Below, in pieces: positions 1,470 through 61,236 of a stretch of DNA of 64,000 bases. Under the pieces are notes generated by a model. It was not told where the DNA came from, ran no database searches, and was given only the letters and a program-made list of their open reading frames with translations. The stretch comes from a virus, in the IMG/VR virus record IMGVR_UViG_3300027782_000032, positions 32,001-96,000 of that record. One strand, given 5' to 3'. The translations under genes and the position numbers were made by a program. The stretch's first letter is position 1, and each line of letters opens with the position of its first letter.

Positions 1470-2683
1470 AAAGTCGGAGACTCGGCCATTACCTGTAGCT
1501 TGTCACATAGAGACTGAAACTCGAAGTACGCATGCCCTATAATCGACCTTGTGCTTTCTAGTGGTAGGTAGTTGTCAAGAACGTGATTCAAAAATGGAAC
1601 CAGCTTGTTTTGAAGCTTTATAGGTCCTGAGTCAGGCATCTCGATTTCTGCTTCTTCTAATGAAGGAATACTAACCCTGCCGTAATCTACAGACTCTATG
1701 CTGTCTAAAGACATCACCATTCTATAGGCTTGAAGGTTTCTCCAGTAGAAGTCGGTACCGCCAATAATCCTGCTGTTATAGTCCAGCTGTCCGTCTATTA
1801 CTATCTGCCGGTAAGCTATGTCAGCTTCCTTAGTGGTTATAGCTTTAAACACAACCTTGTACTTACCATCAAACATTTCATATGATTTCTTAAACCTTAT
1901 ACTTCCTAAAATAGATTGAACAAAATCAAACTTATCTTCAGGAGTTACGTCAGTTAAGTCTTCTCTCTTAAGGTCCCACCCGCAGTGAGGGCAGTTAGGC
2001 ATTAAGCTAATAGCAGACGGCTGGTATTCCTGAGCTGGAGCAGTGTATTCCACGTGAGGTCTTGGCTCCTCTTTATAAGTCTGAGGCCTAGAAGCTTCAG
2101 CTGCAGGTGATGCTATGTCATTTATGAATGATAAGTTGTTTTCTTTGTATACTGGCTTGGCTGCTTCAGGTTTAGTGGAGACGTCTCCACTAATAACAAC
2201 AGGTTCTTCTTTTTTAACTATCTCCTCTTTTTTAACAGGCTCAGGCTCATTAGGCTTAAGGTGGTCTGGTAAAATTGGAGGTTTGAATGGGTTAGCCTTA
2301 TCTACTGACCTCTTAAAAGCATCATCATGCATCTTTTTTAACGAGTCGTATCTTTCCTTGTCAGACACTATCTCGTTTAGAAGCGCCATACCCTCTTCTA
2401 TTTGCCTTCTTTGCTGAGCTGAAACTTTATCAAGAGAAACAGGAGTTTTAACTTTTTGAAGTAGGTTTCTATAGGCCGCCATATCCTGCTCAGATGCCTC
2501 TTCCTCTACTGCAGGTTTGACTTCTTCTTTTTCAGGCTTAGTTGGTGATACCTCTTCTATTGCTTTTTGAAGCTCTTCAAGCTTTCCTTCTTTTTGAAGC
2601 ATTAAAGCTTTTATTTCAAAATCCGTAAGAGAAGACAGCTTAGCCTTACCAGCTAGCGGTGGGTCTTTCTCATTCTCACTCAT
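1451..2683 (-). CDS. Hypothetical tail/baseplate assembly protein (acidic disordered N-half, CPHCG motif)
   Basis: 410 aa ORF between spike and tape measure genes; CxxC motif; function from position only. Confidence 0.35.
   Translation of the reverse strand: MSENEKDPPLAGKAKLSSLTDFEIKALMLQKEGKLEELQKAIEEVSPTKPEKEEVKPAVEEEASEQDMAAYRNLLQKVKTPVSLDKVSAQQRRQIEEGMALLNEIVSDKERYDSLKKMHDDAFKRSVDKANPFKPPILPDHLKPNEPEPVKKEEIVKKEEPVVISGDVSTKPEAAKPVYKENNLSFINDIASPAAEASRPQTYKEEPRPHVEYTAPAQEYQPSAISLMPNCPHCGWDLKREDLTDVTPEDKFDFVQSILGSIRFKKSYEMFDGKYKVVFKAITTKEADIAYRQIVIDGQLDYNSRIIGGTDFYWRNLQAYRMVMSLDSIESVDYGRVSIPSLEEAEIEMPDSGPIKLQNKLVPFLNHVLDNYLPLESTRSIIGHAYFEFQSLCDKLQVMAESPTFWKAIE
2172..2193. repeat. Dispersed palindrome copy 1 (22-bp perfect: TTAGTGGAGACGTCTCCACTAA)
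   Basis: Perfect inverted repeat, 16-bp core at 2175-2190; read as SGDVST in the minus-strand CDS. Confidence 0.95.
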
Positions 2684-2702
2684 AGCATCCCCAGTCCTTT
2701 AG

Positions 2703-60615: not shown

Positions 60616-60678
60616 GCTTACCTCTTATTATAGTCTGGCGCACATACTAACTATAAACATAGCCATATGCAAGGCTGG

Positions 60679-61236
60679 CTACACTACTGACAGCTTACTC
60701 ACCTCATTATCCTCAGTAACTCTCTTCTTCTTACACCCTACTGGAATGTAGAACCCCAGTTGTGGAGACGTCTCCAATCCGTAGCTTCGTCGGATGGACT
60801 CTAGGTCATCGCTCTTAATAGAAATAGCCCACAGCTTTTCATACTCACCTGTTGCAGGCAGCTCAACTATAGGGCCAAGAGTGTAGTGATAAGAGTGACC
60901 GCGCTCAGTGATATGGCTAGTTCCGCCTAGCTTATCTACCTCTTCTTTGGTCATTACCTTGATAGCGCACTCAGTTCTATTGTTACGCACAACGAATTCA
61001 GCCCCTGGCTCATCTAGAGCGTCAAAGACACCTTTGATAAGCGAAGAGGGGACTGTTAGTTCTAGGTTACCGCTGGGACCTGCTTGAAGCCTGCCAGCAA
61101 GAGCGTGCACTGAAGCGTGATCCGCACTCTTGTTCATATGGCCATGCGCCTGCCCAAACGAGAACATCTCAGCGTTGAGAGCCTTGAGCCACTCAGCGCC
61201 TTTGATAAGTCCTAATGATATCGGAGGTATGGTCAT
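60679..61236 (-). CDS. Hypothetical protein, possible degenerate 2H-phosphoesterase fold
   Basis: Overall pattern resembles phage 2H proteins from memory, but both HxT/S motifs are missing. Confidence 0.35.
   Translation of the reverse strand: MTIPPISLGLIKGAEWLKALNAEMFSFGQAHGHMNKSADHASVHALAGRLQAGPSGNLELTVPSSLIKGVFDALDEPGAEFVVRNNRTECAIKVMTKEEVDKLGGTSHITERGHSYHYTLGPIVELPATGEYEKLWAISIKSDDLESIRRSYGLETSPQLGFYIPVGCKKKRVTEDNEVSKLSVV
60762..60777. repeat. Dispersed palindrome copy 9 (GTGGAGACGTCTCCAA)
   Basis: Read in a different frame (LETSP) from the other intragenic copies. Confidence 0.9.

Follow-up and report, generated by a model that had tools for sequence, protein, structure and literature searches.

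Introduction

Sites of the KorB, ParB and Noc class are palindromes of 13–16 bp, dispersed at intervals of several kilobases and in many cases far from promoters, on which a protein dimer loads, slides and acts at a distance; the IncP-1 plasmid RK2, for instance, carries 12 dispersed OB operators for KorB. In phages, 20–30 operator-like sites for one phage protein can be spread over the whole genome, as with the stoperators found in Cluster A mycobacteriophages and the conserved inverted repeats to which the repressor of phiC31 binds. Here we describe an array of copies of one palindrome, GTGGAGACGTCTCCAC, dispersed over a 64,000-nucleotide stretch of IMG/VR virus record IMGVR_UViG_3300027782_000032 (hereafter, the window) and over the genomes of related phages.

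Arrays of dispersed palindromes have received passing mention in a few phages, with their role left unexplained. A literature search for dispersed or regularly spaced phage palindromes found nothing closer than the 17-bp dyad repeat TGTTCGG-NNN-CCGAACA of Cluster O mycobacteriophages, present in more than 30 copies per genome, for which neither a function nor a binder is known (Cresawn et al., 2015; PMC4351075), while a full-text search for the motif of the window returned unrelated primer sequences only. An initial annotation of the window, made from its letters alone, had named no described phage system with such regular spacing; the Cluster O precedent qualifies that statement. As in Cluster O, a single nearly invariant inverted repeat is found in tens of copies genome-wide (12–23 per contig here) and is common to all members of the group, and in both cases the repeat has no consistent orientation to transcription and some copies lie within open reading frames (ORFs) (PMC4351075). 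The two repeats nevertheless lack sequence similarity and differ in build, with 7-bp arms around a 3-bp spacer in Cluster O and a continuous 14–20 bp here. The Cluster O array is also denser, at about one copy per 2 kb, and 14 of its 34 copies are intergenic and 10 lie near gene 5' ends, whereas about 80% of the sites described here are intragenic and occupy all three frames. The words 'spaced' and 'evenly' are not used in the text of the Cluster O paper (PMC4351075). Finally, Cluster O phages are actinobacteriophages with prolate heads; the phage studied here is unrelated to them, encodes a fused beta/beta' RNA polymerase and is nearest to Salmonella phage Arash and a group of Vibrio phages. 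To the dispersed dyad arrays already known, the present case adds selection on site density, a second palindrome in a relative and the lack of any detectable member of the known binder families.

The likeness to KorB-OB and ParB-parS lies in a palindrome of the 13–16-bp class that is dispersed over the replicon. Unlike parS sites, which cluster at the centromere or origin by parAB, and unlike OB, which lies at or near promoters, the present sites are spread genome-wide, rarely adjoin a promoter motif and fall mostly inside genes of a virulent-type jumbo phage. With stoperators they share their large number and their spread over the whole genome rather than over promoters only, but stoperators have an asymmetric sequence whose orientation follows transcription, lie between genes and occur in temperate phages whose repressor is known, whereas the sites here are symmetric and mostly intragenic.

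A continuous palindrome is dispersed over related jumbo phage genomes

The window corresponds to the reverse strand of bases 3257–67256 of G000, a 92,955-bp viral contig estimated to be 45% complete. The palindrome is present at all nine positions at which it had initially been annotated with no more than one mismatch: four copies are perfect (2175–2190, 25438–25453, 31371–31386 and 39474–39489) and five carry one mismatch (10005–10020, 18124–18139, 48187–48202, 53666–53681 and 60762–60777). By contrast, 100 dinucleotide-preserving shuffles of the window yielded no match at all. Eight of the nine sites, including the one-mismatch copies at 18124, 48187, 53666 and 60762, retain a perfect 14-mer core, as the initial annotation had also observed, and G000 as a whole holds 13 sites (11 with a perfect 14-mer core and two one-mismatch copies).

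The source is an uncultured jumbo phage of the virulent type with a genome of ~190 kb. A fused beta/beta' multisubunit RNA polymerase is encoded at 31408–35865 of the window (− strand), adjoined by the gene for an SNF2-type helicase (29912–31405, −), and further phage genes specify a class II ribonucleotide reductase, PhoH and a capsid protein. The 1485-aa polymerase joins a C-terminal part of beta (Rpb2 domains 3 and 6) to an N-terminal part of beta' (Rpb1 domains 1 and 2). The nearest isolates, Salmonella phage Arash (181 kb) and Vibrio phages D69, D181 and D148, are ~30% identical (in the RNA polymerase, for Arash). Polymerase, sigma factor and helicase are abundant in Arash virions (PMC10585845); the first 100 kb of the Arash genome contain no palindrome array, and the Arash paper mentions none (PMC10585845).

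The exact 14-mer is repeated on several IMG/VR contigs, at least five of which are related contigs of 75–181 kb that bear it at the same density. Allowing up to two mismatches, we counted 23 sites in G001 (181 kb), 14 in G002 (101 kb), 23 in G003 (137 kb), 15 in G004 (102 kb) and 12 in G005 (75 kb), as compared to a chance expectation of 0.25 sites per 181 kb; matches with three mismatches are at chance level. G001, the most complete of the relatives, is ~88% complete, and G004 bridges its two ends, adding ~12 kb, which gives a whole genome of ~193 kb with ~26 sites. Further relatives, assembled independently at JGI and in Logan (runs SRR5818249, SRR29004169 and SRR27187793), have the motif too.

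Aligning 92 sites from the six related contigs gave a symmetric 20-mer consensus, t-A-G-TGGAGACGTCTCCA-C-T-a (full form TAGTGGAGACGTCTCCACTA), in which the 14-mer core is nearly invariant and conservation declines symmetrically outward. The palindrome is continuous, with no spacer, its 16-bp perfect unit lying inside the 20-bp symmetric consensus, and its four central bases, themselves palindromic, are as invariant as the arms. The 16-mer of the initial annotation thus describes real copies but stops short of the conserved unit, a symmetric 18–20-mer.

A search with the capsid protein returned more than 100 related contigs of 150–230 kb. This motif was found in none of the five capsid-related contigs tested, and no palindrome lattice of any kind was seen in G006 or G007 (81–83% capsid identity) or in G010 (67%, complete with terminal repeats). 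The array of the window's palindrome is confined to one clade.

Selection acts on the DNA sequence of the sites

G000 to G003 are syntenic at 65–76% nucleotide identity, and most of their sites are orthologous in position. Over 13 groups of orthologous sites, the core is 97% identical as compared to 40–48% in ungapped flanks. Read as protein, the 92 sites give GDVS (35), (V/L)ETSP (29) and WRRL (9), with 19 intergenic, so that all three frames are used. The nearest relatives devoid of the motif, G006 and G007, encode different peptides at orthologous positions: WCETQ stands for WRRLHC, ISDSAS for IGDVST and LDSSPGK for LETSPQ. It is therefore the DNA motif that dictates the peptide and not the reverse, a distinction that the initial annotation had left to be checked. 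Selection acts on double-stranded DNA at these sites.

Within the window, the reading S-G-D-V-S-T is found at the sites starting at 2175 (ORF 1451–2683, −; orthologous site in G001, G002 and G003), 25438 (ORF 25335–25691, −) and 39474 (ORF 38621–39940, −), I-G-D-V-S-T at 18124 (ORF 17796–19232, −; outgroup orthologues ISDSAS and VADNVN) and L-E-T-S-P-Q at 60762 (ORF 60679–61236, −; outgroup orthologues LDSSPGK). The site at 31371 occupies codons 7–12 of the SNF2-type helicase gene; it is present in G000 and G002, decayed in G003 and absent from G001, where a site lies 3.1 kb away instead. Three of the nine are intergenic: 10005, whose single mismatch gives GTGGAGACGTTTCCAC, lies 85 bp upstream of ORF 9297–9920 (−); 48187 lies two bases past the TAG stop of ORF 48205–49113 (−) and upstream of the PhoH gene (47483–48133, −); and 53666 abuts the TAG stop of ORF 53681–54292 (−), with an AAGGAG ribosome-binding site and a small, conserved ORF coming next. 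Over the six genomes, intergenic sites make up 21% of the total as compared to 4–6% non-coding DNA. The claim that the sites ignore gene boundaries does not hold in full: most are inside genes, in every frame, but intergenic DNA holds more than its share.

The last two intergenic sites border an unusual gene run. Window positions 48205–54932 hold a series of dissimilar, hypervariable genes whose products share a basic tail, KLKKKNR or KLKKNR, followed by a TAG stop, and in two of these genes (at 48187 and 53666) a palindrome site comes directly after the stop codon. The slots of the run contain unrelated genes in relatives, and the genes downstream are conserved.

The isolated half-site GTGGAGAC is not enriched outside full sites (4 occurrences versus 3.0 expected in G001, with similar values in three other genomes), suggesting that the recognised unit is the whole palindrome and arguing against a polar signal of the Chi type. 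Likewise, GACGTC, CGTCTC, GAGACG and GAGAC occur at expectation outside the sites. That GACGTC and CGTCTC are not avoided elsewhere argues against a restriction-modification target, and Pfam and PHROG scans recognised no DNA methyltransferase able to protect the sites, only methyltransferase domains of the small-molecule type. The initial view that the sites are not promoters is supported as well; in only 2–3 of 30 cases does the promoter motif TTAATTCA-N-GCGTCATAAT adjoin a site. Palindrome and promoter-like motif come close together only at one G002 site (118 bp apart) and at 74331–74850 of G005. There, each of two palindromes, coming immediately behind a terminator and the junction AGCTATCA, precedes a promoter-like TTAATYCAACC-N-GCGTCATAAT by 15 bp.

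Site density is held while positions turn over

The gaps initially reported for the window, and their coefficient of variation (CV) of ~0.15, were borne out: the CV is 0.153, and only 1 in 100,000 random placements was as even (p about 1e-5). The window is the most regular part of the array. Spacing is also non-random in G000 as a whole (CV 0.33, p = 7e-5 for a random placement as even), in G003 with up to one mismatch (CV 0.36, p = 5e-6), in G004 (CV 0.46, p = 0.001), in G002 (CV 0.52, p = 0.008) and in G001 (CV 0.58, p = 0.003–0.007), and is less clearly so in G005 (CV 0.51–0.63, p = 0.02–0.07). Pooled gaps peak sharply at 7–9 kb (34 of 94); those below 2 kb are rarer than under random placement, and few exceed ~10 kb. 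Evenness holds between neighbours only, as a Rayleigh-type test found no strict genome-wide period (p = 0.07–0.7). Regular spacing is thus a property of the related contigs too, although looser there than the window alone had suggested.

Comparison of the genomes revealed that individual sites move but that each interval retains about one. In the coordinates of G001, the interval 21.5–37.5 kb has one site, at 28437 in G005, 29333 in G003 and 32888 in both G001 and G004; between 134 and 150 kb there is one, at 141603 (G000, G002 and G003) or 144712 (G001); and the interval 96–111 kb has a site at 102440 (G003) or 105640 (G000), with none in G001 or G002. In four aligned cases, a lineage-specific site replaces orthologous sequence without any change in length, which argues that sites arise by point substitution under selection and not by insertion. 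Sites tend to occupy places where the older sequence was variable and already half-similar; at 144712, for example, a pre-existing right half, ACGTCTCTA, was completed through substitutions on the left. The conserved property is density, about one site per interval, and not exact position.

A second lattice was found in G008 (IMGVR_UViG_3300047160_020099; 70% capsid identity, G+C content 58%), a partial contig of 162 kb; complete members of its family measure 190–210 kb. Its palindrome is a different, AT-rich one, AGTATT-NN-AATACT, present in 37 copies (19 perfect and 18 with one mismatch, versus 0.1 expected) with a mean gap of 4.5 kb and a CV of 0.48 (p < 1e-5). The mappable G008 sites lie closer to G001 sites than random positions do (median distance 680 versus 1988 bp, p = 0.02), but at 6 of the 37 they are too few to carry weight. 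A different palindrome at a different density in so close a relative argues against a spacing fixed by capsid geometry, and favours protein–site pairs that change specificity or arise repeatedly; a second lattice is the pattern expected of co-evolving pairs of this kind.

A two-fold symmetric binding protein as the preferred explanation

The initial annotation had proposed that a dimeric protein binds the dispersed palindromes. The two-fold symmetry of a signal held at the DNA level, its conservation above the flanks and its even spacing through turnover all fit this idea. The anchoring of loops, capsid packing and stepwise ejection that the annotation went on to suggest are conjecture. We put at about 0.5 the probability that the palindromes are double-stranded DNA docking sites for a sequence-specific, two-fold symmetric protein, most likely a phage-encoded homodimer, and that selection keeps roughly one of them per 7–8 kb. 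Because density is held and exact positions are not, each site probably acts for the DNA within ~4 kb on both sides of it. Once bound, the protein might spread or slide outward from its site, as KorB and ParB do, or might instead pair with protein at neighbouring sites to form closed loops. Such an arrangement could mark or protect the phage's own DNA, control transcription globally on a one-directional genome, compact the DNA or set up topological domains on a linear molecule. For an array selected for coverage, we consider KorB-OB the best functional analogy.

A more ambitious form of this proposal is tentative, and we would sooner bet against it than for it. It holds that jumbo phages of this family evolved whole-genome coverage more than once, with different palindromes: a protein from outside the known partition and repressor families would load at evenly spaced sites and spread or bridge so as to mark all of the phage's own DNA, with the purpose of shielding it from nucleases, silencing read-through or holding supercoils in linear DNA.

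Several observations weigh against a dedicated binding protein of this kind. Six-frame searches of G001 to G005 found no ParB_N (PF02195) or KorB (PF08535) domain, and those of G001 and G003 to G005 no LacI, RHH_1 or HTH_3 match, although control genomes were matched in each case; the ParB and KorB result applies to a G001 that is ~88% complete with its end join bridged by G004, leaves room for very divergent forms and covers the par operon through ParB_N only. Besides its layout, this absence of matches sets the array apart from ParB-parS and KorB-OB, and from stoperators. Only one protein family, a kinase-like ORF, is shared exclusively by both lattice-bearing lineages, G008 included. A 23-kb site-free stretch is tolerated in G001 (66.8–89.9 kb), implying that full coverage is not essential. 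This stretch holds giant, lineage-specific tail-fibre-like ORFs at a place where the assemblies of relatives break, and looks like recently exchanged DNA that has yet to acquire sites. Evenness itself could partly reflect the positions at which proteins tolerate the imposed peptide. Lastly, the one candidate binder described below has a predicted build that suggests a monomeric DNA-binding module of the homing-endonuclease type, with no obvious dimer.

A bulk Pfam and PHROG scan of 235 ORFs from G001 and G004, followed by scrutiny of selected conserved, basic or clade-specific ORFs, revealed no classical repressor. Two PHROG labels that might have pointed to the binder were rejected: the 'DNA binding protein' is weakly related to pyrimidine-dimer glycosylase, and the 'transcriptional regulator' is a CsrA RNA-binding protein. 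The gene for a 52-aa CsrA homologue (Pfam E = 3e-21; L096:12593-12748, +, equal to 32593-32751 of G001) lies on the strand that carries few genes, at a distance of 140 bp from a palindrome site, and its conservation extends to G004 and G005.

About 51 clade-specific ORFs set the lattice-bearing phages apart from G006 and G007, and only one of their products gives helix-turn-helix signals, with weak hits. Encoded at 43239–44051 of the window (−), this candidate site-binding protein probably spans 257 aa from an internal start, MKGTF, and is predicted to consist of an HNH-like N-domain and three beta-hairpin/helix-turn-helix repeats (AlphaFold2 model, predicted local distance difference test score 85). 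The repeats match the DNA-binding domain of I-TevI (Z 3.3), and neither a Foldseek search against the PDB nor a profile search of PDB sequences gave a match. The family is absent from G006, G007 and G008 and, in IMG/VR, was seen only on lattice-bearing contigs. Being one of ~51 clade-specific ORFs, it is a weak lead on the binder and not a finding. Also in the clade, and absent from the closest motif-free relatives, is an island at 58.6–64 kb of G001 (L098:621-1580, −, and neighbours; L124:8767-10755 in G005) that encodes an AAA+ ATPase of the MoxR/CbbQ type and a CobT-related VWA-domain protein of 645 aa.

If the preferred reading is right and its binder is found, these phages would reveal a new means by which a virus acts on its entire chromosome simultaneously, and would supply a highly specific 20-bp protein–DNA pair usable as a tool. 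What gives the case its interest already is that density rather than position is under selection, with sites moving and about one per interval kept; that a related lineage has another palindrome and another spacing, so that the system changes specificity or arises repeatedly; and that ParB, KorB and the classical repressors, the families known for such sites, are undetectable here.

Alternative explanations for the array

The candidate at 43239–44051 also lends itself to another explanation, which we regard as improbable but the most serious of the alternatives: the sites might be targets of a phage-encoded rare-cutting or nicking endonuclease, producing periodic single-strand interruptions, as in the nicked T5 genome and in phages of the phiKMV type, or starts for recombination or replication. 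The best structural match of the modelled N-domain is PacI (3m7k_A, Z 4.9, 99 residues aligned), a homodimeric HNH restriction enzyme that cuts a palindrome, and the I-TevI-like helix-turn-helix modules, the restriction of the family to lattice-bearing contigs and the invariance of the central palindrome bases, as in nuclease sites, would all suit such an enzyme. A Z of 4.9, however, is weak and within the range of chance fold resemblance, ~51 other ORFs are equally clade-specific, and an invariant arginine stands at the position of the usual HNH catalytic histidine. PacI itself does without the canonical histidine and uses a tyrosine, so this loss is compatible with catalysis. Double-strand cutting at the palindromes would yield 7-kb genome pieces, contig ends do not coincide with sites, and no site-protecting DNA methyltransferase was recognised. 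Were the palindromes nick sites after all, they would account for genome interruptions in a further group of phages.

Two further explanations have, in our estimate, only a slim chance each. According to the first, the sites are conserved linkers at which related phages swap gene modules, that is, recombination joints. Blocks of homology do start within 2–6 bases of a site at 13571, 19053 and 80186 of G000 (versus G002) and at 91724 of G004 (versus G001), and the sites at 48187 and 53666 border the hypervariable gene array. Yet all of those cases are intergenic, with a variable gene beside a conserved one, where homology would break in any event, while most sites lie within conserved genes and have homology on both sides. 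Linkers would also leave the palindromic form, the exactness over 14–20 bases and the even spacing unexplained.

According to the second, which we rate no higher, the sites are bound by a protein of the host, for instance a global regulator or a nucleoid protein, that the phage recruits, a possibility that gains from the failure to find a phage-encoded binder. The central eight bases equal the MetJ met-box consensus, AGACGTCT, and the layout, in which a central CG is combined with T-G at the outer half-site positions, resembles that of LacI/GalR-family operators, but neither assignment was supported: MetJ requires tandem boxes, and AGACGTCT occurs outside the sites at expectation (2 versus 2.2). 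In 596 Gb of bacterial and archaeal genomes, the 18-mer has seven occurrences, always single, as compared to ~9 expected by our own estimate, and it is not enriched in any of the ~186,000 bacterial species genomes covered; at this chance level, it is not a host motif. Moreover, close relatives with presumably similar hosts have no lattice or a different one.

It is very improbable that the sites act as RNA, namely as hairpins with an 8-bp stem and an ACGU loop that govern processing, antitermination or stability of long one-directional transcripts. Every site is transcribed, given that almost all genes share one strand, and the sequence could form a stable hairpin. Variation in the sense-RNA stem does not preserve pairing, however: it produces 8 G-U pairs as compared to 14 non-pairs (9 of them A-C), and none of 29 variant sites shows a compensatory change. 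The would-be loop bases are as invariant as the stem, and cleavage or termination within essential genes would do harm. Nor is there the run of T of an intrinsic terminator after the sites, as judged by reading the flanks.

An origin as an assembly or library artefact, which two back-to-back BsmBI sites and an AatII site in the motif had made worth considering, or as the footprint of a small mobile element is refuted, given that assemblies made independently from several samples (IMG/VR, JGI and the three Logan runs) share the sites at orthologous positions, reading frames continue through them, site-bearing and site-less sequences are equal in length in the four aligned cases, and CGTCTC and GACGTC are neither depleted nor enriched elsewhere.

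Other occurrences and repeats

Outside the phage contigs, one perfect and two two-mismatch palindromes lie within 500 bp (2033–2520) of JBIPLT010000384.1, a 4779-bp contig binned to a Lake Mendota Flavobacteriales metagenome-assembled genome. This contig has no nucleotide similarity to the six phage contigs and may be a mis-binned distant relative or a hint of the host.

The lattice-free relative G006 (IMGVR_UViG_3300021594_000641) carries repeats of another type, in three short tandem arrays at approximately 13587–13790, 29003–29080 and 30347–30490. Their ~62-bp unit includes CTTATCCACGCACGCGTGGGTGAGAC and ends in a hairpin, GGTGAGAC...GTCTCACC.

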